Positions 12,348 to 63,862 of a DNA stretch of 64,000 nt are shown piece after piece. The stretch spans positions 19,172 through 83,171 of the forward strand of contig DATDYZ010000001.1 in the NCBI GenBank assembly GCA_035288905.1, given 5' to 3'. Position numbers and translations under genes: made by a program. Below the pieces are notes generated by a model that was not told where the DNA came from, searched no databases, and saw only the letters and a program-made list of their open reading frames with translations. The DNA comes from Candidatus Anderseniibacteriota bacterium (GTDB lineage: Bacteria; Patescibacteriota; Andersenbacteria; UBA10190). The stretch's first letter is position 1. The number at the start of each line of letters is the position of its first letter.

Positions 12348-13106
12348 ATGGTTTCACTCAAAACTTCGCAAGAAATTGAACTCCTTGCAGAGGCGGGTGC
12401 GCTCTTAGGGGCGATACTTGATGTACTTACCAAAAAAGCAGCGGTAGGAGTGACGGGGACAGAATTAAATACCGTAGCTCACGATATGATGCAGCAAGCA
12501 GGCGCAATCCCTGTATTTTTAGGCTACGGCAAACCACCATATCCCGCAGCTATTTGTGTGTCCGTAAACGATCAAGTCGTTCATGGAATTCCAAATGATA
12601 TTCCATTTCAAGATGGGGATATAGTAAGCATAGACGCAGGACTTTCGCTGCATGGCTTAATTGTAGATAGCGCTCGAACTGTTGGCGTAGGCCATCTCAC
12701 TCCTATACAAAAAAAGCTTATGAACGTCACTAAGCAAGCGCTTGCAATTGGCATAGAACAAGCTCAAGTTGGAAACAGAACGGGAGACATTGGCTATGCC
12801 GTGCAATCATATGTCGAAAAAGAAGGATTTGAAGTTGTTCGTGCTTTAGTTGGCCATGGGGTAGGCCATGAATTGCACGAAGAACCACAAGTGCCCAACT
12901 TCGGATCAAAAGGGGCAGGTACGTTACTTACAGAGGGCATGGTACTAGCAATTGAGCCGATGGTAACGCAAGGCAGTCCCCATGTTACTACTTCTCCTGA
13001 TAAATGGAGTATTATTGCAGTCTCGGGAAAAGCATCTGCACACGAAGAACATACGATTGCAATTACAAAACAAGGGCCGAGGATCCTTACTATCGGAAAT
13101 GCATAA
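12348..13106 (+). CDS. map: Methionine aminopeptidase type I
   Basis: Pita-bread fold residues (D...D...H...E...E pattern: IDAG, HGVGHELHE, EPM). Trimmed from track ORF 12270. Confidence 0.92.
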   Translation: MVSLKTSQEIELLAEAGALLGAILDVLTKKAAVGVTGTELNTVAHDMMQQAGAIPVFLGYGKPPYPAAICVSVNDQVVHGIPNDIPFQDGDIVSIDAGLSLHGLIVDSARTVGVGHLTPIQKKLMNVTKQALAIGIEQAQVGNRTGDIGYAVQSYVEKEGFEVVRALVGHGVGHELHEEPQVPNFGSKGAGTLLTEGMVLAIEPMVTQGSPHVTTSPDKWSIIAVSGKASAHEEHTIAITKQGPRILTIGNA

Positions 13107-13632
13107 AATACCCACTAACGTCACCCCCTCCAGCTCCCCCTTGGTAAGGGGGAGAGGCGTCATTGCGTTAGACATCGGGAATCGTTATATTGGCGTTGCG
13201 GCTGCCGACCATGTGGATGCCTCGCTGGCGTATCGCTACACAACTATTGATCGTAAAACACAAGACGCACGAACAGTGCTTGCGGACATTATTACAAAAG
13301 AATCTATTGATACACTTGTGCTTGGTGTGCCGTATCATATACAAGATGGGAGTGAAACGCAGCAGACTAAAAAAACTCGTCAGTTTATAGCGTTACTAAA
13401 AAAAACATTTGACCCTGCTATTTCATACATTGAAGTTGATGAGACATTAACGTCTATGCAAGCAAAAGAAAATTTACAACACGAAGAATCGGATACGAAA
13501 GAAGAGCATGCAGAAGCCGCGCGTATTATGTTGCAAGAATTTCTTAGTTCCGCGACTGTCATGCCGGACTTGATCCGGCATCCAGGCGACGTGGATCCTT
13601 ACGTCAAGCCCGGGATGACAATGCTGTTATGA
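13099..13632 (+). CDS. ruvX: Putative pre-16S rRNA nuclease / Holliday junction resolvase-like RuvX (YqgF). Both termini are encoded by palindromic repeats.
   Basis: ALDIGNRYIGVAAAD, LVLGVP and the AEAARIMLQEFL end are YqgF-like. The first roughly 20 aa overlap repeat B and the last roughly 25 aa (MPDLIRHPGDVDPYVKPGMT) are encoded by repeat A, so the true start and stop are uncertain. Confidence 0.65.
   Translation: MHKIPTNVTPSSSPLVRGRGVIALDIGNRYIGVAAADHVDASLAYRYTTIDRKTQDARTVLADIITKESIDTLVLGVPYHIQDGSETQQTKKTRQFIALLKKTFDPAISYIEVDETLTSMQAKENLQHEESDTKEEHAEAARIMLQEFLSSATVMPDLIRHPGDVDPYVKPGMTMLL
13110..13172. repeat. Family B-variant palindromic repeat (CCCCCTCCAGCTCCCCC...GGGGGAGAGG)
   Basis: It shares its core with the insert inside hldD (59603..59688). 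Confidence 0.6.
13558..13620. repeat. Family A palindromic repeat copy
   Basis: GTCATGCCGGACTTGATCCGGCATCCAGGCGACGTGGATCC...CCCGGGATGACA. Confidence 0.8.
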
Positions 13633-14444
13633 CAAATATCAATACATATCTATCAAATATTCGAGAACGGGTTGATCAAGAACTTGATCGTTTACTTCCG
13701 CGTGCAGATGACTCTCCAAAGCGACTTCATGAGGCTATGCGATATAGCGTATTTGCGGGAGGAAGGCGTTTTCGACCAGCGCTGTGTATTGCGTCGTGTG
13801 AGGCAGTTGGTGGTACGTTTGAACAAGTGTTACTTGCCGCATGTGCAATTGAAGTATTACACACGTATACGTTAATTCATGATGACCTGCCAGCCATGGA
13901 CGATGATGATATGCGTCGTGGAAAGCCCTCAAGCCATAAAGCATTTGATGAGGGCACCGCAATACTTGCCGGCGATGCCTTACTTACGATTGCTTTTGAA
14001 TGGCTCGGGAAAACAGGCAATGCACGACTGGTACAAGAATTAGCGCAAGCAACAGGAAGTCTTGGAACAATAGGTGGACAAGCGGACGACCTTGATGCAA
14101 AAAATACGAGTATCTCTCAAGAAGCCGTACTGTCTATTCATGAAAGAAAGACAGCCGCTCTGTTTCGCGCTTCGTGTAGAATGGGCGGGATCACGGCAGA
14201 TGCATCAGGAAAACAAATAGACATGCTCGGGCAATTTGGCGAGCATCTTGGTATCGCATTCCAATTATTAGATGATATATGCGATACTGATCCAATTACT
14301 ATGAACGCGTATAGCAAAGATGAAGTTATATTGCTTGTGAAAAAATACGAGCAGTTATCGTACGATGCACTGAAAAAAATAAAAGGCGATACTTCGCAGA
14401 TGCAAGCACTTGCTCGTCATACATATGCATCTTTTAATATATGA
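13629..14444 (+). CDS. Polyprenyl diphosphate synthase (FPP/GGPP synthase family, trans-IPPS)
   Basis: Two Asp-rich motifs: LIHDDLPAMDDDDMRRGKP and FQLLDDICD. Confidence 0.85.
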   Translation: MTNINTYLSNIRERVDQELDRLLPRADDSPKRLHEAMRYSVFAGGRRFRPALCIASCEAVGGTFEQVLLAACAIEVLHTYTLIHDDLPAMDDDDMRRGKPSSHKAFDEGTAILAGDALLTIAFEWLGKTGNARLVQELAQATGSLGTIGGQADDLDAKNTSISQEAVLSIHERKTAALFRASCRMGGITADASGKQIDMLGQFGEHLGIAFQLLDDICDTDPITMNAYSKDEVILLVKKYEQLSYDALKKIKGDTSQMQALARHTYASFNI

Positions 14445-15139
14445 CCGAGAATATTCCAACGCATATTGCTATTATTCCTGATGGCAACAGGAGGTGGGCC
14501 ACGTCAAATTCAGCATCCGCTTTAGATGGACATACACAGGGAGCTGAAGTGATGCGGACTATCATGCCCCATGCAGCAGATGCGGGGGTGAAGTATGTTT
14601 CCGTATGGGGAATGTCACTCGATAACTTTACAAAACGAAGCTTGGGTGAAGTTGCTGGCCTGTTGGCACTGTTTCGATCAGAGTTTCTTGACCTCGCTAC
14701 AAGTAACGATATTCACTCACGGGAGGTCAGAATAAACGTCATTGGGCGTTGGAAAGAAAAGTTTCCACTGCCCGTGAGGAATGCAGTGCAAAAAGCAATT
14801 GATGCCACCAGCCACTACACTAATCATTATATGAATTTTTTTCTGGCATACGACGGCGTAGACGAAATGACGCAGGCAATTCAAAGCATTATTGCAAGTG
14901 GAGTGCACACCGTAACACCGGAAATTATTAAGCAGCATTTATTCACAAAAGATTTGCCACCTGTTGATTTAATCGTTCGCACAGGCGGAGAACCGCATTT
15001 ATCCGCAGGGTTTATGATGTGGGATGTAACCGATTCGCAGTTATGGTTTACCGAAAAATTGTGGCCGTCATTTACGACTACAGATTTAGACGATGCAATT
15101 ACAGAATACGCAAAAAGACAAAGAAGAAAAGGCGCATAG
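14441..15139 (+). CDS. uppS: Undecaprenyl diphosphate synthase (cis-prenyltransferase)
   Basis: HIAIIPDGNRRWA motif. The ATGA start overlaps the upstream stop. Confidence 0.9.
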   Translation: MTENIPTHIAIIPDGNRRWATSNSASALDGHTQGAEVMRTIMPHAADAGVKYVSVWGMSLDNFTKRSLGEVAGLLALFRSEFLDLATSNDIHSREVRINVIGRWKEKFPLPVRNAVQKAIDATSHYTNHYMNFFLAYDGVDEMTQAIQSIIASGVHTVTPEIIKQHLFTKDLPPVDLIVRTGGEPHLSAGFMMWDVTDSQLWFTEKLWPSFTTTDLDDAITEYAKRQRRKGA

Positions 15140-15146
15140 TAGTGTT

Positions 15147-15449
15147 CCCCTCTCCCCAATTGGGGAGAGGGTTAGGGTGAGGGCAACATCGATGCAATGC
15201 TCTGCACTACTCCATTAATATTTTTCATCACCTCATCATTCGTAAACCTCACAACTCGTATACCGCACGCATTTAGATATGTAGTACGTTCTGTATCATA
15301 TGCTTGTCCTTTCGTCGCACGGGTGTTGATCGTGCTCTGTTATGTAATACTCCCACAATCATATTCTACACCCAAGTCATATTCCTCTTGGGTTGCCCTC
15401 ACCCTCCCGCCTGTTGGCGAGGAGCCCTCTCCCCAATTGGGGAGAGGGG
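15147..15449. mobile_element. MITE-like composite element. Terminal perfect palindromes CCCTCTCCCCAATTGGGGAGAGGG with inner inverted repeats GGGTGAGGGCAAC / GTTGCCCTCACCC flank about 200 bp.
   Basis: Seen directly. Shorter versions of the same module occur at 29983, 58754, 61430 and 63736. Confidence 0.65.
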
Positions 15450-15490
15450 AACGCTACTTTGTAACTTATCCACAATATATTATTAGGGTG

Positions 15491-15499
15491 TGGTATAAT
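15491..15499 (+). promoter_or_regulatory. Extended -10 element (TGgTATAAT) ending 6 nt before the ATG at 15506, so the transcript may be leaderless
   Basis: TGGTATAAT is followed by tatttcATG. There is no Shine-Dalgarno sequence. Confidence 0.4.
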
Positions 15500-15505
15500 T
15501 ATTTC

Positions 15506-18500
15506 ATGATTAAATTCTTTACATATTTATTTGTTGTATTAAGTTTTTTTGGTGGAACTGTTGCGAATGCACAAGGGCCGTTTGGCAATCGTAGCGGTGC
15601 TGATCTTGACAACGCGTTAAACTCAGATGAAGGGTCATACTCTCCTCCTGCTATTTATATTAGAAATACGAAGGTAAATCCTGCCGATGCTTCGGGTAAG
15701 CTTACTGGTACGTTTACCATGATCAATAAAGATGATGAGACACTCGGAGATTTACGGTACCGCATTGAGCTCCTAGAAACATTGCCACCTGCCGAAAAGA
15801 ACACCTTTGTGTGGGATACTGGCCGCATGTTTGATACATACCTTTCTTCAGAAATATTTGCGCTTACTCCGGGAGAAGAGAAAAATATTTCGTTTACATA
15901 TACTCCCGCCAGTGTTCCTGCAGGAAACTATCGTTTGCAGATTCAGAGCACCACTTCACAGGGGAAGGATTTGGGTTGGGATACCGTACCTGTTACGTTG
16001 CAAGGAAGCGTTACGCAGTTTGTTGATCTTGTACCGGGGACTATTTTACTTCCGGAATTTCCGAATGAACTCATTCCACCGCTGTCTGGTCCAAACGTTT
16101 CCCCTAGTAGTCCTTTTACATTGCGCGCAACTGCAACAAACCCGGGGAATGCTTCTGTCACTGTTACTCCTACTGTTACGGTGTATGACTTTGCAACCTC
16201 AGGAGAAATTGTAAGTACACAGCCTATTGCTAACGTTGAACTTGTGCCTGGTAAAGCAACCGAACTGAGTATTCCTGTTACGGCAAGCGCTACTCCGGGT
16301 GTGTATTATGCAGTGCTTAGCTTGAATTCTGCGAACACAAGAGTTTCTGCGTTAGCAGAATATAGATGGGTAGTTCGAGGGGGTTCCGGAAAAATATTGT
16401 CAGCGAGAATTAAACAATTGCAAACAAAAGCAAACGAGAAAGTTTCTGTATCTGTAGAATATGCCGGCCCTGCAGACGCAGAGACGGAGATACAGGGCAA
16501 GATGACCATTGAAGTTGTAGATACACAAGGTGTTGCGGGAACATTTCAAGTTCCTGAAACGTTGGAACTTTCAGACGGTATTGGTGGCGGAGTTGCAGGA
16601 GTTACGCTTACGCGCGACCTTACCGGAGCTCCTGGTCTTCGCGTAACGCTTACTGATATACATGGAGCGGTACTGGATGTATATGAAGTAGCAATTCCTC
16701 TTTCCGGAGAACAATTACAGACGCTTGCGCAAGAAAATAAAGATATTGTCGCCAGTATAGCCAAGAGCAAAAGTTCTGTTTTATATATCCTTCTCGGTTC
16801 TGTTATACTCGGTGTATTTGCTCTTGTTCTCTATTTGCAGAAGAAAGGAGCCGCTGCGGCAACTGTTCTTGGGCTTTTCCTTGTCATCGCAGCTACGCTT
16901 AATGTGGCTCACGGTCAAAGCGGTGCTGGTAATGGGGTTGGTATTGAAGTTATAAGCCCAAAGATATTTTCTGGCGCTGGGGATAACGGATATGGCGGAT
17001 TGTGGGAGGCGGAGCCGAGCTTAACCGGCAAACCTCTTGTAGAAGTATTTATTAATAGTCCTGATCACGATGCTCCAGGTGGAACGTATGAAATGGATGC
17101 TGTTCTGTTTGGGTATCGGATAGAATATGGTGCTTGTGGAAATACTCCCCCAGAAGCATGGTTGAAGGTGCGCTTTGATCGCAATGGAGGAAAGCATAGT
17201 GACTTATTAGGTTCTGGTACGCCTAACTGGTTTCAGATTATTGACTTAAAATGGACGAACGGTTGTCAGTTTTCGTGGCAGTATTGTCTCCGTTCGGCTC
17301 AAGGGGAAGCGTTGCTGGATCTTTCTTCCTTGTCTCAAGCTGCGACAAGTACGACACTTCAAATAGGTTCATTCTGGGAGAACTTTGATGCAAGTGATGA
17401 AAGTTGTATTACGGGGCATTGCATTCCTGCTACTCCTTCGTTTACCCTCAGCGATTGGTTTGTAGTAAATCGCCATGCGCATATTGTGAACATGTGGATA
17501 AATCCGGTCGCAGTAGCACTACCCCCAAGTGTTGATCTTAAAATTAATGGTTCCGATAATCCTGCAGACGTGGTGGTGAATACAGGAATCACGCTTTCGT
17601 GGACTTCTTCACAAGTAAGCAGTTGTACAGCAACGATTGATTGGACTGGAGCAAAGCCAACGGCAGGTACGGGGAGCGCTACACCTACTCAGGTGAGAAC
17701 CTATACATACACCATTACATGCAGCGGTATTTCAGGCACAGCTACCGACACGGTAAGTATAAATTCTATAGCTGCTCCTCAAGTGGTAACGGTTGATCTT
17801 AAAATTAACGGTACTGATAGCCCTCCGAACGTAGCTTTGGGCAACTCAATCACCTTGTCGTGGACGGCTTCTGCAAATGCAAATACATGTGCTGCTACTG
17901 GTGATTGGGGCGGGTCAAAGAGTGTACCTACGGGGTCTCAAATAGATACTCCAGCACAGGCAAGAACATATACGTATGCAATTACGTGTACAAATACTGC
18001 CAGTGGTGCTACGGGTACAGATACGGTGAATATTGTGGTGGATGCGCCTAGCGGTGTTCCTATAGCAATCGCGAAGATGAGTATTGATGGAATAACGTAT
18101 AGTAACAGCATCACTGTTACGCAAAATGTTCCTTATACGATCTACCTTACTGCCGGAGAACATGGGAATCCTCCCGGAAGCTCTGATCCAGATGGGTGGG
18201 ATCATCCTCTGGCGGGAGTGTCTGAGGGTGGTAATATTAAATGGAATTCTGATCTTAATTTAGGTGCAGCTACGTTTGAAACAACGTATTCAAATCCTCA
18301 ATTTCCTACCGACGCTGATATGAACCTTGGGCAGAAGACATTTACACTTGCTCCAAGTGGTTCTCCGTATACATATAATTTGCTGCAGATAACGGATGCT
18401 ACTGGTAATGTGTCTCCTATCGGAACTGTCAATGTCACGGTTGTGTCTGCAACTCCATCACCAAGCCCTAGCCCGAGTCCATCATTTAATCCGGGCGGAG

Positions 18501-18520
18501 GATTTGAAGAAACAAGATAA
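15506..18520 (+). CDS. Large secreted/surface protein (1004 aa) with a signal peptide, two tandem repeats of about 80 aa (VDLKING.D.P..V......ITLSWT...C.AT.DW.G.K...G.....P.Q.RTYTY.ITC), an internal hydrophobic pair and a C-terminal PSPSPSPS linker
   Basis: Signal peptide MIKFFTYLFVVLSFFGGTVANAQG. The repeats are at about 17521-17760 and 17791-18040. Track ORF 15197 starts inside the MITE and was trimmed. Confidence 0.75.
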   Translation: MIKFFTYLFVVLSFFGGTVANAQGPFGNRSGADLDNALNSDEGSYSPPAIYIRNTKVNPADASGKLTGTFTMINKDDETLGDLRYRIELLETLPPAEKNTFVWDTGRMFDTYLSSEIFALTPGEEKNISFTYTPASVPAGNYRLQIQSTTSQGKDLGWDTVPVTLQGSVTQFVDLVPGTILLPEFPNELIPPLSGPNVSPSSPFTLRATATNPGNASVTVTPTVTVYDFATSGEIVSTQPIANVELVPGKATELSIPVTASATPGVYYAVLSLNSANTRVSALAEYRWVVRGGSGKILSARIKQLQTKANEKVSVSVEYAGPADAETEIQGKMTIEVVDTQGVAGTFQVPETLELSDGIGGGVAGVTLTRDLTGAPGLRVTLTDIHGAVLDVYEVAIPLSGEQLQTLAQENKDIVASIAKSKSSVLYILLGSVILGVFALVLYLQKKGAAAATVLGLFLVIAATLNVAHGQSGAGNGVGIEVISPKIFSGAGDNGYGGLWEAEPSLTGKPLVEVFINSPDHDAPGGTYEMDAVLFGYRIEYGACGNTPPEAWLKVRFDRNGGKHSDLLGSGTPNWFQIIDLKWTNGCQFSWQYCLRSAQGEALLDLSSLSQAATSTTLQIGSFWENFDASDESCITGHCIPATPSFTLSDWFVVNRHAHIVNMWINPVAVALPPSVDLKINGSDNPADVVVNTGITLSWTSSQVSSCTATIDWTGAKPTAGTGSATPTQVRTYTYTITCSGISGTATDTVSINSIAAPQVVTVDLKINGTDSPPNVALGNSITLSWTASANANTCAATGDWGGSKSVPTGSQIDTPAQARTYTYAITCTNTASGATGTDTVNIVVDAPSGVPIAIAKMSIDGITYSNSITVTQNVPYTIYLTAGEHGNPPGSSDPDGWDHPLAGVSEGGNIKWNSDLNLGAATFETTYSNPQFPTDADMNLGQKTFTLAPSGSPYTYNLLQITDATGNVSPIGTVNVTVVSATPSPSPSPSPSFNPGGGFEETR

Positions 18521-18530
18521 CAATTTGTAC

Positions 18531-18595
18531 TGTCATCCCGGGCTTGACCCGGGATCCAGGCGACGTGGATGCCGGCTCGGGGGCCGGCATGACAC
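18531..18595. repeat. Family A palindromic repeat between convergent genes
   Basis: TGTCATCCCGGGCTTGACCCGGGATCCAGGCGACGTGGATGCCGGCTCGGGGGCCGGCATGACAC. Confidence 0.8.
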
Positions 18596-29982: not shown

Positions 29983-30022
29983 CGCCCTCTCCCTCGACGG
30001 GGAGAGGGATGGGGTGAGGGGT
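29983..30022. repeat. Family B palindromic repeat variant (CCCTCTCCCTCGACGGGGAGAGGG + GGGGTGAGGGG)
   Basis: Seen directly. Confidence 0.7.
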
Positions 30023-30030
30023 ATCGCGTT

Positions 30031-30444
30031 ATGAAACGAGCGACGTTATTCACAGACGGCGGGGCGAGGGGTAACCCGGGTCCCGCCGCAATCGGTTTTG
30101 TGCTTACTGGTATTGGAAGCGCGCCTATTTTATATAAAGAATATATTGGGAAAGGCACGAACAACCAGGCAGAGTATCGTGCGTTATTAGCGGGTATTAC
30201 TCGTGCAAAAAAAGAGGGAGTAAAAGATTTGTTGTGCTATTTAGATAGCGAATTAGTGGTAAAGCAGGTGCGAGGAGAATACAGAGTTAAAAATGAAGAG
30301 CTAAAACTTTTGCTTACAGAAATAAAAAAACTACTACCCGTTTTTGATTCTATAACATTCCAACACGTTCCGCGCGCTAAAAACGCTATTGCGGATAAGC
30401 TGGTGAATGAGGCGTTGGACTCCAATTTTGCAGATGGACTATAA
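30031..30444 (+). CDS. rnhA: Ribonuclease HI
   Basis: FTDGGARGNPGPAA, NNQAEYRAL and the DSELVVKQ catalytic DEDD pattern. Confidence 0.9.
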   Translation: MKRATLFTDGGARGNPGPAAIGFVLTGIGSAPILYKEYIGKGTNNQAEYRALLAGITRAKKEGVKDLLCYLDSELVVKQVRGEYRVKNEELKLLLTEIKKLLPVFDSITFQHVPRAKNAIADKLVNEALDSNFADGL

Positions 30445-30782
30445 GCCGGATTCTGTTAAAGGCAATCATCTGTCTTGTTCTGCTATCGCTAGCAGAATCT
30501 TTGCCCTCTACCTGCCCCGTTATTCACGAAGCGACTTGAGGTTGCACTCGGTGGGGTTTGCACCCTCGCCGTATTACTACGGCGCGGCGTGGGCTCTTAC
30601 CCCACGATTTCACCATTGCTAATAAAAGCTGTTTGTTTCTGTTGCGCTCTTCGCCCTGCAAGCAGGGTCCCTAGGCTTGCGCCTGGCAGACGTTATCTGC
30701 CACTGTTTTCTTGAGTGTCCGGACTTTCCTCTCAGGCCCTTCGATTTCTCTCAGGGTAAAGCGATTGCCCATCCATCTGCGT
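30425..30782 (-). ncRNA. rnpB: RNase P RNA (bacterial type), antisense to the last about 20 nt of rnhA
   Basis: The minus strand reads GAGGAAAGUCCGGAC (P4 5' strand), GGUAAGAGCCCAC, and ACAGAAUCCGGCUUAUAG near the 3' end. The P1 helix GCAGAUGGA / UCCAUCUGC defines the ends. Confidence 0.75.
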
Positions 30783-46079: not shown

Positions 46080-46123
46080 AAGATTGAAATAATTAGAAAA
46101 CCGTGGTATTTTCATGGAATTGT

Positions 46124-47938
46124 ATGGAAATACGCAATTTTTGTATTATCGCGCATATTGATCATGGAAAGAGCACACTGGCAGACCGGATGCTCGAGTT
46201 AACGCATACCGTCGAAATGAGAGATATGCAGGCGCAGCTACTAGACTCTATGGAGCTGGAGCGAGAAAAAGGAATAACCATTAAGCTTCAACCAGTACGC
46301 ATGGAGCATAAAGGCTTTGTATTAAATTTAATAGATACTCCCGGGCATGTAGATTTCCAGTACGAAGTATCAAGAAGTCTGAAAGCAGTTGAAGGGGCTA
46401 TTTTACTTGTAGATGCTACGCAAGGTGTGCAAGCACAGACGGTTTCTAATTTATATTTTGCACTCGAAAAAAATCTGGAAATAATTCCTGTTATTAATAA
46501 AATAGACTTACCAGCTGCAGACGTTGAGGGCGTATCTCAAGAAATTATTAATCTTTTGGGTGCAAAAAAAGAAGATATACTTCATATATCTGCGAAGACG
46601 GGACAGGGGGTTCCGGAATTATTGGATGCAGTGATTGCGCGGGTGCCGGCGGCCACGCGCCCCTCACCCCCTGCCACGGCAGGGCCCTCTCCCAGAACGG
46701 GAGAGGGGAGCGAAAACCTGCGGGCGCTTATATTTGATTCGGTGTACGACGACTACAAGGGTGTGGTTGCATATGTGCGGGTTATGGAAGGAAGCGTTTC
46801 GCAAGGCGATGCGATTACGTTTTTAGGGACAGATGTTGATGATAGGGTAGTTGAAGTGGGCGTATTTAAACCACAATTTACTTCGCGTGAAAAAATTGGA
46901 GCGGGAGAAATTGGATATATTGCAACTGGCTTAAAAAATATTCGACAGGCTCGCGTGGGCGATACAATTACAAAAACAGTAGAAAAACATGAAGTGGAGC
47001 AACTCCCCGGCTTTGCAATTCCTCAACCGAAAGTCTTTGCTGGATTATACCCTGTAGATGGAAGCGACTTCCCTGTATTGCGCGAAGCAATGAGCCGACT
47101 GCAACTCAATGATTCTAGTTTAACTGCTCATATGGAGCGAAGCCATGCACTCGGGCAAGGTTTTCGATGTGGGTTTTTAGGAATGCTCCATTTAGAAATT
47201 GTGCAAGAGAGGCTGCGAAGAGAATTCGACGTAGAGTTGGTAGTCACGACTCCGAGCGTGCTCTACCACGTGGTGTTAACCTCCGGCGAGAAAAAAGATA
47301 TTCATACACCAGATGCGTTTCCGGATCCGAGTTTTGTCACATCTATGGAAGAGCAATGGTGTAAGGCAGATATATTACTTCCTCAGAAGTATCTCGGAGC
47401 CGTATTTGAAGTTATGGCACAACATGAAGGGAATTTAATTTCGCAAGAAGTATTGGGAACAGACCGCATGCTATTGCATTATGAATTGCCACTTCGAGAA
47501 CTTGTTGTCGATTTGTATGATCAACTAAAATCTATAACAAGTGGATATGGTTCGTTAAGTTATGATGTGATTGGTTGGAGGTCGGCAGACGTGGTGAAGC
47601 TGACAATCTTAATGAATCATGAAGTTGCTGAAGCGTTGTCATTAATTATTCCACGTACCAAAGCAGAAGCAATCGGGCGCCGAGTAGTCGATAAGCTAAA
47701 GGATCTTGTGCCGCGACAACAATTCGCAGTGCCTATTCAAGCAGCAATCGGTGGCAAAGTTGTAGCTCGCGAGACGGTACCCGCGCTTCGAAAAGACGTG
47801 ACGGCAAAGCTGTATGGAGGAGACGTAACTCGAAAACGAAAACTCTTAGATAAGCAGAAAAAAGGAAAAAAACGCCTTTCCACGAAAGGGTCTATCAATT
47901 TACCCCCAGAAGCATATATTCAGTTGCTCAAAAGGTGA
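46124..47938 (+). CDS. lepA: Translation elongation factor 4 (LepA), carrying an in-frame Family B repeat insertion
   Basis: IIAHIDHGKSTLADR and DTPGHVDF G-motifs, and the C-terminal LepA domain. The extra segment ATRPSPPATAGPSPRTGEGSE lies before the conserved LRALIFDS. Confidence 0.92.
   Translation: MEIRNFCIIAHIDHGKSTLADRMLELTHTVEMRDMQAQLLDSMELEREKGITIKLQPVRMEHKGFVLNLIDTPGHVDFQYEVSRSLKAVEGAILLVDATQGVQAQTVSNLYFALEKNLEIIPVINKIDLPAADVEGVSQEIINLLGAKKEDILHISAKTGQGVPELLDAVIARVPAATRPSPPATAGPSPRTGEGSENLRALIFDSVYDDYKGVVAYVRVMEGSVSQGDAITFLGTDVDDRVVEVGVFKPQFTSREKIGAGEIGYIATGLKNIRQARVGDTITKTVEKHEVEQLPGFAIPQPKVFAGLYPVDGSDFPVLREAMSRLQLNDSSLTAHMERSHALGQGFRCGFLGMLHLEIVQERLRREFDVELVVTTPSVLYHVVLTSGEKKDIHTPDAFPDPSFVTSMEEQWCKADILLPQKYLGAVFEVMAQHEGNLISQEVLGTDRMLLHYELPLRELVVDLYDQLKSITSGYGSLSYDVIGWRSADVVKLTILMNHEVAEALSLIIPRTKAEAIGRRVVDKLKDLVPRQQFAVPIQAAIGGKVVARETVPALRKDVTAKLYGGDVTRKRKLLDKQKKGKKRLSTKGSINLPPEAYIQLLKR
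46659..46712. repeat. Family B-type palindrome (CCCTCTCCCAGAACGGGAGAGGGG with GC-rich flanks) inside the lepA CDS
   Basis: Seen directly. It sits in-frame. Confidence 0.7.
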
Positions 47939-57224: not shown

Positions 57225-58217
57225 ATGAAACATATTTCACTAAAACGAGCGAAAGAAATTACCTCAAAGTTTAGCAGTCAAAAAGTTTTGGTCATTGGAG
57301 ATGCAATGATTGATCACTATGTGCTAGGGGTGGTACAGCGGGTGAACCCCGAAGCCCCTGTATCTCTGTTGAATGTGAAAGAAAAACGTGACATGAGCGG
57401 AGGTGCGGGTAATGCAGCGAAAAACGTTGCAACACTTGGTGCTGCCACTACCCTCCTTACGATTACCGGAGATGACCCGGCAGCATTTCGACTGAAGGAA
57501 ATTGCAGAAGCGGAACTGTATAAAGTGTACCCAATTCGAGATGGTTCTCGTCCAACTATTCAAAAGAGTAGGTATATGGCAAATCACCAACAACTGTTGC
57601 GGGTAGACGAAGAGGAAAAGCACCCGGTATCTCCTGAAATTGAAAAGCAAATAATAGCAGATATGGAGAAGTTGCAAGAAGGAATAACTGCGATTGTTGT
57701 TTCTGATTACGACAAGGGATTTATTACGCCCAATGTTGCTTCTGCTATTATTGCTATTGCTCATGATCGTTCTCTGCCGATTATTGCTGACTTGAAGGCG
57801 AATCACGTTCCGTTGTTTAAAGGAGTTACGGCTATTACTCCAAATCGAAAAGAAGCACATGAATTTCTTTCGCTTAATTGGCCAGATGAAAAAAAGCCAC
57901 CTGAATATTTAGCACAAGAACTTTCAAAGATGATGAAAAGCGATGTATTTGTAACGCTCGGAGATGAAGGTATTTACCTGCGGGATCGTGAAGGAGAAGA
58001 GTTCCATATTAATCCCGCGCGAAAAATTGAAGTGTTTGATGTGTCTGGGGCTGGCGATACGGTAGTTGCAACGTTAGCGTTATCGTATGCTTCGGGCGCT
58101 ACTGCATTTGAGGCTGGGGAATTAGCAAATGCAGCAGGTGCTGTTGTGGTAGGCAAGGTTGGAAGCGTTGCTCCTACTGTGGAAGAGATTTTAGAAATGG
58201 TTGAGTCTGAGGAATAG
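57225..58217 (+). CDS. hldA: D-glycero-beta-D-manno-heptose-7-phosphate kinase (stand-alone HldE kinase domain, PfkB family)
   Basis: VLVIGDAMIDHY, GGAGN and the C-terminal GAGDTVVA. Trimmed from track ORF 57078. Confidence 0.83.
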   Translation: MKHISLKRAKEITSKFSSQKVLVIGDAMIDHYVLGVVQRVNPEAPVSLLNVKEKRDMSGGAGNAAKNVATLGAATTLLTITGDDPAAFRLKEIAEAELYKVYPIRDGSRPTIQKSRYMANHQQLLRVDEEEKHPVSPEIEKQIIADMEKLQEGITAIVVSDYDKGFITPNVASAIIAIAHDRSLPIIADLKANHVPLFKGVTAITPNRKEAHEFLSLNWPDEKKPPEYLAQELSKMMKSDVFVTLGDEGIYLRDREGEEFHINPARKIEVFDVSGAGDTVVATLALSYASGATAFEAGELANAAGAVVVGKVGSVAPTVEEILEMVESEE

Positions 58218-58788
58218 TCCTTCTCGTATGCTTAAGCGCGTCATCTTTTTAGATCGCGATGGAACGCTGAACGTTGACCATGGATATGTGCACTCACGCG
58301 AACAGTGGGAGTGGGTGCCTGGTGCACTGGATGCATGTAAACAACTCCAAGATGCAGGGTATACGCTTGCAGTGATAACGAATCAATCCGGCATTGCCCA
58401 TGGCTTATATACAGAAGAAGCGATGCATGAGTTGCATCGATATATGAGATTGGAATTGGATCAGTATGGCGTGCATCTTGCGATGATTGCATTTTGTCCG
58501 CATGCTAGAAGCCAGACAGATTGCGATTGCAGAAAACCTCATATAGGGATGGCAAAACAAATTGAGGCAAAAATTGGTGAAATTGACTATGCAAATAGTT
58601 GGACAGTAGGTGATAAAGAAGCTGATTTGTTATTTGGCAAAACTGCAGGAACAAAAACGGCATTGATACGAAGTAAGTATTGGGAAGAAGGCAAACTAAC
58701 GGTACAACCTGATATGGTTGTTGATTCTCTGGAACAGGCGGCAGTTAGTATCACCTCTTCCCAATTGGGGAGAGGTCGCTCTGTATGA
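58201..58788 (+). CDS. gmhB: D,D-heptose 1,7-bisphosphate phosphatase
   Basis: IFLDRDGTLN and CPHARSQTDCDCRKP. The start could instead be the internal ATG at 58228. The C-terminal roughly 10 aa run into repeat B. Confidence 0.83.
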   Translation: MSLRNSPSRMLKRVIFLDRDGTLNVDHGYVHSREQWEWVPGALDACKQLQDAGYTLAVITNQSGIAHGLYTEEAMHELHRYMRLELDQYGVHLAMIAFCPHARSQTDCDCRKPHIGMAKQIEAKIGEIDYANSWTVGDKEADLLFGKTAGTKTALIRSKYWEEGKLTVQPDMVVDSLEQAAVSITSSQLGRGRSV

Positions 58789-58850
58789 GCGAAGCGAATT
58801 AAAGAGCGGGAGAGGGCAACCCAAAGCGCAACGACAGCCCTCCAGCCTTC
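58754..58850. repeat. Family B composite repeat (CCTCTTCCCAATTGGGGAGAGG ... GGGAGAGGGCAAC..CAACGACAGCCCTCC)
   Basis: Seen directly. Confidence 0.7.
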
Positions 58851-58980
58851 GCTGAAGCTATGGCCGGCAAAGCACCCTTTTACCCCACTGCGTCCCGCGT
58901 AGCTCGCAAGCGAAGTGGGATATGGGTAGAGGGGAACTATGCACTTCCCTATATTTTATTTTTTATATACTATTATATCT

Positions 58981-59493
58981 ATGGAACTTCCACATCATTG
59001 GAGAAAAGAGAAAATTTTAACCCTGGAAGAAGCAGCAAAAAAGTCTGCGGAACTTCGAGCACAAGGAAAGACAATCGTAAGCCATAACGGGTCTTATGAC
59101 CTACTTCACGGCGGGCATTTAGACATGCTTGAAGAAGCAAAGCAACAGGGCGATATTCTTATTGTTGGAATAAACACGGACGTTTCTATCCGTGATGCAA
59201 AGGGCCCTACTCGTCCTATTATTGGTGTAGAAAATCGTGCGGCTATGCTTGCTGCACTTATTTGCGTCGATTATGTAACAGTGATGGATGGGGCGTACAA
59301 CGAGGAGCCACAAGGTTCGTTTATACCTGCTATTAAGCCGCACATTCATGTGAATGGTGAAGAATACGGGCCAGAAGAAAAGTGGATTGAATACGGTGCA
59401 ATGCAAGCATGTGGAGCGAAGGGATACTCGGTAGGACGCAGACCAAACCTTTCAACCTCAGACATCATCAAGAAGATTCAATCGGAAGTATGA
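58981..59493 (+). CDS. hldC: D-beta-D-heptose-1-phosphate adenylyltransferase (stand-alone HldE C-terminal domain)
   Basis: Cytidylyltransferase motif SHNGSYDLLHGGH. Trimmed from track ORF 58939. Confidence 0.83.
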   Translation: MELPHHWRKEKILTLEEAAKKSAELRAQGKTIVSHNGSYDLLHGGHLDMLEEAKQQGDILIVGINTDVSIRDAKGPTRPIIGVENRAAMLAALICVDYVTVMDGAYNEEPQGSFIPAIKPHIHVNGEEYGPEEKWIEYGAMQACGAKGYSVGRRPNLSTSDIIKKIQSEV

Positions 59494-60551
59494 TTGTCGT
59501 AACTGGCGCAGCAGGGTTCATTGGAAGTGCTACGGTGTGGGCACTTAATCAAAAAGGCCGAGAAGATATTATTATTGTGGATGAGATAATTGATAACCCG
59601 ATTCTCCCACCCCCTCCAGCTCCCCCTCGGGCAGGGGGAGAGAACGCGGCGGACGCTTCGCCGAGTAGCGACTCGGCTCGCGAAAAGGAACACAATATCG
59701 GGCATTTGAAGTATGATCAAATGATGGGTATTGCCGATTTTCGAAAGCAATTACTATCAGGAGAACTGGATAGCTTAGGTATAGAAGCAATTATTCATTT
59801 GGGTGCATGCAGCGCAACTACAGAAACAAATTGGGACTATTTGCTGGATAACAACGTGGAGTATACCAAAGATATGATCCGCTGGTGCCAAACGAATAAC
59901 GCTCGGTGCGTGTATGCATCCAGTGCGGCAACATATGGTGATGGAGAGGTAGGGTATGACGATAATCACGACCTATTTGACTCGCTGGTACCGATGAACC
60001 TCTACGGCAAATCAAAGCTGTTAGTTGATATATGGGCGCGAGATGGCGGCTATTTAGATGGGGCAGTTGGTCTTCGATACTTTAACGTATTTGGTCCGAA
60101 TGAATGGCATAAAGGCTCTATGATGAGCGTAGTTGCAAAAAAGTACCCTGAAATTGCCTCTGGCAAACCCATTACGTTGTTTAAGTCGTATGAAAAGGAC
60201 TATGGTGATGGTGAACAAAAACGAGACTTCGTGTATGTAAAAGATGCAGTGAGAGCCACTCTCTTTTTTATGGATAACATGCAACATAATGGAGTGTATA
60301 ACGTGGGTATGGGAATTGCCCGTTCCTGGCTTGATGTTGCCCGCGCCATGTTTGCAGCATCTAGTATTCCAGAAAAGGTAGAGTTTATCGAGATGCCAGA
60401 TAATCTCAAAAACCAATATCAATACTTTACGCAGGCAAATATTAAAAAGTTAGAAGCAACAGGATTTGATATGAGTCAAAATTATTCTTTAGAGAAAGCA
60501 GTGACAGAATATATCCAAGAACATTTAGCTCCTCATAAACACTTAGTATGA
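59490..60551 (+). CDS. hldD: ADP-L-glycero-D-manno-heptose 6-epimerase, carrying an in-frame Family B repeat insertion
   Basis: [22 protein letters not shown] and the YxxxK catalytic pattern. The ATGA start overlaps the hldC stop. Trimmed from track ORF 59409. The extra segment [29 protein letters not shown] lies in the first variable loop. Confidence 0.88.
59603..59688. repeat. Family B-variant repeat inside the hldD CDS
   Basis: CCCCCTCCAGCTCCCCCTCGGGCAGGGGGAGAG plus the CGAGTAGCGACTCG palindrome. Confidence 0.7.
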
Positions 60552-61423: not shown

Positions 61424-61429
61424 CAGCGA

Positions 61430-61541
61430 TCCCCTCTCCCCAATTGGGGAGAGGGTTAGGGAGAGGGCAACCCACGACGCAACGACAGCCCTCACCCCTG
61501 CCTGCGGGCTAGGCCCTCTCCCCCATATGGGTAGAGGGGAA
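61430..61541. repeat. Family B composite repeat (two palindromes flanking GGGCAAC..ACGACAGCCCTCACCCC)
   Basis: Seen directly. Confidence 0.75.
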
Positions 61542-61588
61542 CTAACCATTATTGACAATAACAATATAATAGAACATAATATAGCCAT

Positions 61589-63723: not shown

Positions 63724-63735
63724 AAGCGTAGACGT

Positions 63736-63848
63736 TCCCTTCTCCCCAATTGGGGAGAAGGTGCCTCGCCAGAGCGGGCGGATGAGGGCAGGACACAACG
63801 CTACAACAGCCCTCACCCCAACCCTCTCCCCCCATGGGGAGAGGGGGT
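63736..63848. repeat. Family B composite repeat
   Basis: CCCTTCTCCCCAATTGGGGAGAAGG ... ACAACAGCCCTCACCCC ... CCCTCTCCCCCCATGGGGAGAGGGGG. Confidence 0.75.
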
Positions 63849-63862
63849 CTCGTGATTACTTT

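Follow-up and report, generated by a model that had tools for sequence, protein, structure and literature searches.

The window analyzed in this study is a stretch of 64,000 nucleotides from Candidatus Anderseniibacteriota bacterium (contig DATDYZ010000001.1, positions 19,172 to 83,171), in which we examined an element, here called E1, that lies between uppS and an open reading frame (ORF) for a protein of 1004 aa. The homologs of UppS are named undecaprenyl diphosphate synthase and come from Andersenbacteria/Patescibacteria; the stop codon of uppS (TAG) occupies 15137–15139, and the left hairpin of E1 begins 8 nt further on. The 1004-aa ORF starts at ATG 15506 (not at 15507), its N-terminus resembles a signal peptide (MIKFFTYLFVVLSFFGGTVANA), and its only match in Pfam was a sub-threshold one, to A2M_BRD. 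An earlier description of this DNA (hereafter, the sequence-only reading) had placed E1 correctly between these two genes, and had proposed that it resembles a miniature inverted-repeat transposable element (MITE) that delivers the promoter region of the 1004-aa gene. In our analysis, E1 is probably a dead, non-autonomous copy of a cassette in which a gene of ~120 aa for a DUF559 protein stands between two inverted BoxC/PIT/TMECO motifs. The coordinates of E1, its parts, and the related copies are summarized in Table 1.

A perfect 24-nt palindrome (CCCTCTCCCCAATTGGGGAGAGGG) occurs at both ends of E1, at 15148–15171 and 15425–15448, and the two halves of an inner inverted repeat, (A)GGGTGAGGGCAAC at 15174–15187 and GTTGCCCTCACCC(T) at 15392–15405, are 100% complementary. 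Both repeats are present as the sequence-only reading had described them, and the number expected by chance was 0 in each case; when up to three mismatches were allowed, the palindrome had six matches in the window and none in 100 shuffles. The terminal repeat is longer than the palindrome by GTTC/GAAC, which sets the limits of E1 at 15144–15452, and the right boundary coincides with the position at which the similarity to a metagenome contig described below (L125) is lost, exactly after GGGGAGAGGGGAAC. The left motif reads CCCTCTCCC-CAATTG-GGGAGAGGG-TTA-GGGTGAGGG, that is, the 24-nt palindrome followed by a mirror “third-strand” block. The right repeat is inverted and consists of the palindrome, a small hairpin (CTCCTCGCCAACAGGCGGGAGG, 15403–15424), and the block GGGTGAGGGCAAC (15392–15404). 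When E1 was folded as RNA, its ends were predicted to pair over ~48 bp (−141 kcal/mol, z = −9.7), and very stable hairpins were likewise predicted for two shorter copies in the window, E3 and E4 (Table 1).

Table 1. Positions of E1 and its parts, the neighboring genes and predicted promoter sites, and the related copies in the window
Feature	Coordinates	Strand	Basis
uppS, last gene of the ribosomal-protein/secY/adk/map/ruvX/ispA/uppS string	14441–15139	+	PF01255
E1, whole: GTTC, left triplex-motif repeat, DUF559 pseudogene (−), right triplex-motif repeat, GAAC	15144–15452		inverted repeats
Left BoxC/PIT/TMECO type-A motif	15148–15183	+	exact match to published pattern, 0 expected
DUF559 (Vsr-like PD-(D/E)XK endonuclease) pseudogene	15172–15362	−	PF04480
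TAGAAT, predicted −10-like hexamer of the DUF559 gene	15363–15368	−	sequence, prediction only
Right triplex-motif repeat, inverted	15392–15448	−	palindrome 15425–15448, hairpin, block
Extended −10 (TGgTATAAT), predicted, of the surface-protein gene	15491–15499	+	sequence; outside E1
Gene for 1004-aa secreted or membrane protein, no Pfam family	15506–18520	+	gene calls
Solo hairpin CTCCCCCTTGGTAAGGGGGAG in the called N-terminus of ruvX	13134–13154	+	palindrome scan
Solo TMECO-pattern motif just upstream of ORF 30031–30444	29985–30020	+	palindrome scan, pattern
Hairpin module in frame within the lepA-like ORF 46103–47938 (...VIARVPAATRPSPPATAGPSPRTGEGSENLRALIFDS...)	46654–46712	+	palindrome scan
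E2, degenerate ORF-less motif pair	58753–58936	+	palindrome, translation
Hairpin CTCCCCCTCGGGCAGGGGGAG within ORF 59409–60551	59620–59640	+	palindrome scan
E3, minimal ORF-less form: TMECO type A, 19-nt spacer, inverted degenerate motif	61428–61545	+	z = −4.95
E4, ORF-less pair; TMECO on the minus strand at 63810–63845	63734–63850	+	z = −5.3

Repeats of this kind were reportedly described by Bergler in 1992 and Bachellier in 1999 as the BoxC/PIT repeats of Escherichia coli and other Proteobacteria. They have been known since the early 1990s, and we know of no origin, function, or mobility gene that has been established for them. The loci that carry them have been reported to be unstable and hypervariable. 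In Holder et al. (2015; PMC4666352), where they are called TMECO and the earlier names BoxC and PIT (potential intrastrand triplex) are given, the pattern is CCCTCNCCC N3-6 GGGNGAGGG N3 GGGNGAGGG, and type A has TTA as its second loop; the work of Hoyne/Maher (2000) on these repeats is taken here as cited in that paper. The pattern had four exact matches in the window (15148–15183, 29985–30020, 61432–61467, and 63810–63845), where none is expected. The intact elements L011, L028, and L032 also match it at each end, with the two matches inverted, and it further matched loci L146–L148 of E. coli K-12. In an intrastrand triplex motif, a pyrimidine arm and a purine arm are followed by a 3-nt loop and a purine block in mirror image; in the left motif of E1, the purine arm, loop, and mirror block read GGGGAGAGGG-TTA-GGGTGAGGG at 15162–15183, which would give it the capacity to form a purine-motif intrastrand triplex. 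In 123 of 184 informative hairpins, a block that mirrors the hairpin's own purine arm, with no more than one mismatch, follows after 2–5 nt; the direct-copy control gave 29 of 184. The stems vary by locus (CCTCCCC, CCCCTCC, CTCCCCC, and others), and all three blocks co-vary.

The likeness to BoxC/PIT/TMECO extends beyond the exact pattern. A 22-nt core (GGGGAGAGGGTTAGGGTGAGGG) is identical in the window and in E. coli K-12, and in both cases the repeats are multi-copy and interspersed, frequently form close inverted pairs, and occupy hypervariable loci. The two also differ: the host here is a member of the Patescibacteria (Andersenbacteria-like) and not a proteobacterium; copies in the window also lie in frame within genes, whereas TMECOs in K-12 are “always intergenic”; and the pair at 15144–15452 encloses a DUF559 remnant, whereas published work names no mobility or nuclease gene. 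Transposase or integrase remnants were never found at TMECO sites by Holder et al., and this most detailed study of the repeats never found mobility-related activity beside them (PMC4666352). From their sequence, we assign the ends of the element to the known BoxC/PIT/TMECO family, here in a new phylum.

No family in Rfam reached its threshold on E1 or on 20 related loci, and the only sub-threshold match was to whalefall-1 (RF01762), with 19.3 and 17.8 bits against a gathering score of 37, at 15148–15184 (+) and 15395–15448 (−, 17.8 bits). Whalefall-1 shares with the repeats a UCUCUCC...GGAGAGA hairpin, a second hairpin (~24 nt), and then AGGGUGAGG; it differs in that these scores are below gathering and that it has been described as a non-coding RNA from one whale-fall metagenome only. 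The layout of its consensus suggests that whalefall-1, an orphan “RNA motif,” may correspond to an end of a DUF559 cassette.

Between the two repeats, the minus strand of E1 encodes the C-terminal part of a protein in one frame (...YDTERTTYLNACGIRVVRFTNDEVMKNINGVVQSIASMLPSP, followed by a stop) and the N-terminal part in another (MIVGVLHNRARSTPVRR). The C-terminal frame matched PF04480 with an E value of 8.6e-11 and 42.1 bits (gathering cut-off, 20.6) over profile positions 66–108 of 109. In the left motif, the third block and TTA loop encode the final codons and stop of this remnant (LPSP-TAA). The nearest proteins in the databases are two intact DUF559 proteins of 121–122 aa, P0001 and P0002, which share both its N- and its C-terminus. 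P0001 (122 aa) matched PF04480 from end to end (E = 1.2e-34, 118.9 bits) and also matched PDB 3HRL, a solved “endonuclease-like protein” (E = 3.6e-21). DUF559 is in the Vsr branch of the PD-(D/E)XK nucleases, a branch that includes a homing endonuclease family (PMC3424549; PMC3239194). The ORF-bearing parent has DUF559 in Pfam and no transposase domain.

The intact gene is carried by L125 (ERZ27254845), a metagenome contig of 945 nt that belongs, with the window-bearing contigs, to one run of ENA sample accession numbers. In it, the full element with P0001 intact follows the final 66 nt of uppS, which do not differ from the window, so that it occupies the uppS-adjacent site of E1. The two sequences are near-identical over the end of uppS, the left repeat, and the 3′ part of the gene; a diverged patch of ~50 nt and a 178-nt gap in the window follow, and near-identity then resumes for the 5′ gene part and the right repeat. 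The loss of these 178 nt from the window copy, at 15322/15323, removed ~59 codons and introduced a frameshift; the copy also has a stop. The lost segment encodes the conserved VVDFY...EIDGDSH, and the catalytic D...ExD...H core is thus missing from the window copy. A short near-repeat, TACGRAGGA, stands on either side of the gap and points to a microhomology deletion. With both the catalytic core and the frame lost, the window copy is a pseudogene and the element is non-autonomous. To the right of the element, the DNA of L125 had no match anywhere in the window; this reflects either a rearrangement of the locus at the element in the strain concerned or chimerism of the short contig. A −10-like hexamer, TAGAAT, which points towards uppS, lies 6 nt upstream of an in-frame GTG (15356–15354), and the same geometry was seen at other DUF559 genes (TATGAT-N6-ATG in L031 and TAGAAT-N6-GTG in L124). 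This GTG is predicted to be a leaderless start of the pseudogene.

The association of DUF559 genes with these repeats recurs in other genomes. The exact 24-nt palindrome was found at 33 sites in GTDB species genomes of several phyla, with 3–8 per genome in some. The hosts are Andersenbacteria, Saccharibacteria, and an unclassified “bacterium,” which have up to 8 sites per genome, as well as Erythrobacter, an Asaia metagenome-assembled genome (MAG), Methylomirabilis, Chloroflexi, and other Proteobacteria. Intact DUF559 genes adjoin the exact palindrome in L011, L014, L031, and L032 and a variant palindrome in L028, and the intact cassette occurs in Saccharibacteria, other Patescibacteria, and an Erythrobacter. 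L027 is a still shorter deletion derivative with unchanged ends, and the graded internal deletions in E1, L027, and E3 all retain the last DUF559 codons. We also scanned metagenomes with an alignment of these DUF559 proteins, which yielded at least 487 relatives; the following figures come from the best 80 (L040–L119). A palindrome with a C/T-rich arm was present within 170 nt upstream at 65 of 76 loci, downstream at 54 of 76, and on both sides at 48 of 72, compared with a background rate of 0.04 per 210 nt. In the same set, the upstream hairpin often pairs AAGGAGG/GGGGAGG with its complement 10–20 nt before the DUF559 start codon. By analogy with the fold-back inhibition of the IS10/IS50 transposase mRNAs, such a hairpin could sequester the ribosome-binding site. 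The exact palindrome was absent from IMG/VR, where only distant DUF559 genes occur; among such genes on viral contigs, hairpins of this type were seen in only 2 of 19. Viruses were therefore rejected as vectors.

A similar arrangement is present in E. coli K-12. Its ycjD gene, annotated as DUF559, ends with ...RRSPSP and a stop in a degenerate motif block (L146 7040–7840, fabI-ycjD). Downstream of ycjD there is a partial duplicate of its own 3′ end (GAGACGGTGCTGGAGAATATTC...), and then, 167 nt downstream, a full TMECO that shares its 22-nt core exactly with the motif of the Patescibacteria window. Holder et al. list that TMECO between fabI and ycjD and are silent on the gene (PMC4666352). Our literature search found nothing that links DUF559 to these repeats; most subscription journals lay outside the search, and an earlier description is possible. 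The new part of our results, the tie between a DUF559 nuclease gene and a BoxC-type repeat, suggests a testable origin for this orphan repeat.

We then considered the other copies in the window. The sequence-only reading had noted shorter derivatives of the element, always at gene ends in the glycan cluster. The derivatives were confirmed, with palindromes at 58753 (three mismatches), 61432 (perfect), 63738 (two mismatches), and 63822 (three mismatches), and a scan for palindromes with a C/T-rich arm returned 11 in the window against 0–1 in simulated sequence. The restriction to gene ends in the cluster did not hold: several copies are in frame inside ORFs, and the additional ones at 13134, 29985, 46685, and 59620 show that the element is not restricted to the glycan cluster. 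Across the window and the GTDB loci, 34 of 88 hairpins fall in long open frames. E3 and E4 have the layout of the close inverted TMECO pairs of K-12 at fepB/entC and ygfF/gcvP; an exact-protein look-up on the presence or absence of E3 gave only the same arrangement. In-frame palindromic insertions in conserved genes, such as the lepA-like gene here and a 6-phosphogluconate-dehydrogenase-like gene in Saccharibacteria, recall the Rickettsia palindromic elements (RPEs), which differ in that their sequence is unrelated, their host group is another, and they have no known associated nuclease gene.

Several of these copies alter the genes in which they lie. The last ~12 codons and the stop of ORF 58201–58788 come from E2 (...SITSSQLGRGRSV, then a stop), and the frame of the epimerase gene downstream of E4 runs open through it, so that this gene is called from 63704 with a 45-aa N-terminal extension. 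RuvX is called at 177 aa in the window and at 132–136 aa in four relatives, and the hairpin lies within the N-terminal extra part (window 13099–13160). In the lepA/EF4-like gene, the module adds ~18 residues (TRPSPPATAGPSPRTGEG) in a loop that precedes the conserved ...LRALIFDS. In three different species-level genomes of Saccharibacteria type (L010 6742, L036 3326, and L038 4230), the palindrome and IASNQPSP, the last DUF559 codons, are in frame at one shared position of a 6-phosphogluconate-dehydrogenase-like ORF. Near the solo motif at 29985, an RNase P RNA of bacterial class A (30426–30780, minus strand, 211 bits) overlaps the 3′ end of ORF 30031–30444 on the opposite strand. An ORF of 1107 aa called from 15197 (L004), which reads through the right half of E1, was rejected as an artefact of the stop-free G/C-rich repeat, as the signal peptide begins at 15506.

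Regarding the 1004-aa gene, the sequence-only reading had pointed to an extended −10 (TGgTATAAT) placed 6 nt before the ATG, with no Shine-Dalgarno sequence, and to a possibly leaderless start. The site was confirmed: it lies 38 nt past the right end of E1, its last base is 15499, and 6 nt separate it from the corrected ATG, before which there is no Shine-Dalgarno motif. A TANNNT hexamer occurs 5–7 nt before the start codon in 16 of the 54 genes in the window (background, 5.5%; P = 2e-8), and exactly 6 nt before it in 8 of the 54 (P = 6e-6), whereas a Shine-Dalgarno-like motif was found at only ~14 of the 54 gene starts. Ribosomal-protein genes in the window typically have ...TTCT/TCCT directly before the ATG. 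As the geometry is exact and the spacing is enriched, the leaderless start is plausible as a sequence prediction, and the 1004-aa gene is probably transcribed as a leaderless mRNA. Leaderless expression appears, from these gene starts, to be common in this Andersenbacteria-like genome. One point weighs against a leaderless reading: many operon-internal genes also have no Shine-Dalgarno motif, so a leadered read-through transcript could be translated too. A search for closer orthologs of the 1004-aa gene turned up only proteins that were partial or distant and that lacked upstream DNA of use here.

We also examined the insertion site. E1 has no target-site duplication, its flanks (AGTAGT on the left and GCTACT on the right) being inverted and not direct, and in 49 full cassettes the flanking direct repeats averaged 5.1 nt, against 5.0 nt in the control. 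The sole clear long flanking duplication that we observed, an exception, is in an Erythrobacter MAG, where the beginning of the downstream gene (ATGACCCGCCTCCAATCCGCCTTTGCCAA) is directly duplicated over 29 nt at the flanks of an intact DUF559 cassette (L014 1170–1700). The uppS–galT slot (window 15140–18595), in which galT is convergent, is variable among relatives whose UppS is 78–81% identical. In L121 and L122, uppS is followed directly by galT and the slot is empty; L123 has another, small membrane-protein gene; and L120 has a 103-aa ORF and a 1055-aa ortholog of the surface protein, 34% identical. This variability agrees with the reported instability of TMECO loci. Relatives at ~80% identity have no element after uppS, an exact empty site for E1 was not found among these four UppS relatives, whose loci are rearranged, and a PADLOC match to a homing endonuclease was weak (1e-5).

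These results bear on the explanation given in the sequence-only reading, in which a MITE inserted upstream of the surface-protein gene and brought its promoter region, while its shorter copies serve at the ends of genes as terminators or insulators. The terminal inverted repeats, several copies, and strong predicted hairpins fit it, and E1 and E3 each begin 8 nt after a stop codon, with the next gene start 44–53 nt beyond each element. E1 is indeed small, multi-copy, and non-autonomous, with no functional ORF, and it shares with MITEs such as Correia, RUP, and ERIC the strong predicted fold and the existence of internal-deletion derivatives of an ORF-bearing form; it differs from them in being G/C-rich and not A/T-rich. 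However, as there is no target-site duplication and no transposase parent, E1 does not qualify as a strict MITE. The delivery of a promoter was not borne out, either. Homology with L125 stops at 15452, which places the extended −10 in flanking DNA, and an ortholog of the surface-protein gene (L120) has a similar motif (TGGTATAAAT) upstream with no element nearby. Our scan of the plus strand found no promoter-like site at the right end of E1, and the 1004-aa gene thus has, as a prediction, an extended −10 of its own that the element did not bring. An intrinsic terminator was rejected, as no T-run follows the hairpins (the following sequence is GAACGCTACTTTG). The module is read through in frame in the lepA-like gene, the N-terminus of the epimerase, the C-terminus of ORF 58201–58788, and ruvX, which a functional terminator would not allow, and PIT/BoxC elements had neither promoter nor terminator activity in E. 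coli, as work of the Maher laboratory is cited in PMC4666352. The terminator or insulator role is weakened by these findings and is unlikely, and the element most likely has little terminator activity. Overall, we regard the MITE explanation as highly unlikely.

Another explanation is that the triplex repeats are structural DNA or RNA motifs of the host (such as sites of recombination or replication pausing, or hairpins that stabilise mRNA), that DUF559 is a chromosomal repair nuclease whose gene uses the hairpins for regulation or termination, and that E1 is a decayed host gene and no cassette. The covariation of the three mirror blocks does indicate selection on structure and not on sequence, the upstream hairpin often has a GGAGG-like sequence near the start codon that could sequester the ribosome-binding site, Vsr-like DUF559 proteins can be repair nucleases, as is the case for Caulobacter VsrA (PMC12907096), and no movement was observed. 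Yet the same ends occur without the gene, many per genome, and graded deletions keep the last DUF559 codons. Moreover, unrelated phyla share the identical 24-nt palindrome, the sites of insertion vary from genome to genome and include in-frame positions within conserved genes, and the gene is present, absent, or broken at one site in close relatives; we consider this explanation improbable. The hairpin repeats might, alternatively, be moved in trans by another enzyme, e.g., an IS200/IS605-type Y1 transposase, with DUF559 as a frequent passenger. Hairpin ends with no target-site duplication resemble the biology of REP/RAYT and IS200/IS605, and ORF-less copies far outnumber ORF-bearing ones. REP/REPIN with RAYT likewise have a small gene between inverted short palindromic repeats that are dispersed through the same genome, mostly without the gene, and they likewise show no target-site duplication; they differ in that the gene here encodes a PD-(D/E)XK Vsr-like nuclease and not an IS200-type Y1 transposase, and in the three-block mirror repeat. 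No such transposase was seen in the window or beside the repeats in the loci examined, neither transposase nor integrase remnants were ever found at TMECO sites by Holder et al. (PMC4666352), and the gene consistently located between the repeats is DUF559, so mobilization in trans has, in our view, a very small chance of being correct.

We therefore return to the reading of E1 as a dead copy of a DUF559 cassette and propose how such a cassette might behave. It would be a selfish element, whose nuclease would act on the structured repeats (hairpin or triplex) at its own ends and promote break-induced copying or recombination in a homing-like manner. Copying of this type would leave no target-site duplication. 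The ORF-less BoxC-type repeats would be deletion relics of the cassette, and the nuclease would help to explain the hypervariability of their loci. A parallel exists with the Vsr-fold (EDxHD) homing endonucleases, such as I-Bth0305I, and with free-standing homing endonuclease genes, in which a small nuclease of the Vsr/DUF559 superfamily is also part of an apparently selfish element and break-repair copying is likewise expected to leave no target duplication. In contrast to these, there is no intron or intein here, and the gene stands between two intact copies of its putative target and does not interrupt one. We hold the proposal of a selfish cassette with a nuclease acting on its own structured ends to be possible, with the greater weight against it.

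Various observations count against our interpretation. Movement was not observed, and there was no pair of filled and empty sites at an otherwise identical position. The absence of a target-site duplication is joined by the fact that DUF559 is not a known transposase, and Holder et al. reported no stable triplex in vivo (PMC4666352). At the 38 informative metagenomic loci, the flanking hairpins were inverted in 23 and direct in 15, so the term “terminal inverted repeat” does not apply universally. A chimeric join at the repeat is possible in L125, although the stretch shared inside the element does not reach the length of the assembly k-mer. Finally, a host repair nuclease may underlie the association itself, its gene being regulated by the repeats or attracting them.

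At this locus, the outcome is mainly deflationary, with a repeat of a known type that brought no promoter and is unlikely to act as a terminator. As far as we have found, the new aspect is that the genes of one defined DUF559 clade nearly always stand between BoxC/triplex-motif repeats, that graded deletion derivatives link the gene-bearing form to the ORF-less pairs, and that the arrangement is conserved from Patescibacteria to ycjD of E. coli. In a wider and somewhat unlikely reading, the BoxC/PIT/TMECO repeats would be the termini and deletion relics of a selfish DUF559 cassette that is widespread from E. coli to the Candidate Phyla Radiation (CPR); its nuclease would recognize the hairpin or triplex of its own ends, spread by break-induced copying, and cause the instability reported around the repeats. 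On this view, E. coli YcjD would be one of its members, either domesticated or resident, and whalefall-1 would be one cassette end. For the annotation of CPR genomes, the repeats yield in-frame “PSP...GEG” insertions and spurious ORF extensions by which gene callers are misled. The idea can be tested in E. coli, where YcjD would be expected to bind or cut triplex-motif DNA and to drive the instability of TMECO loci.

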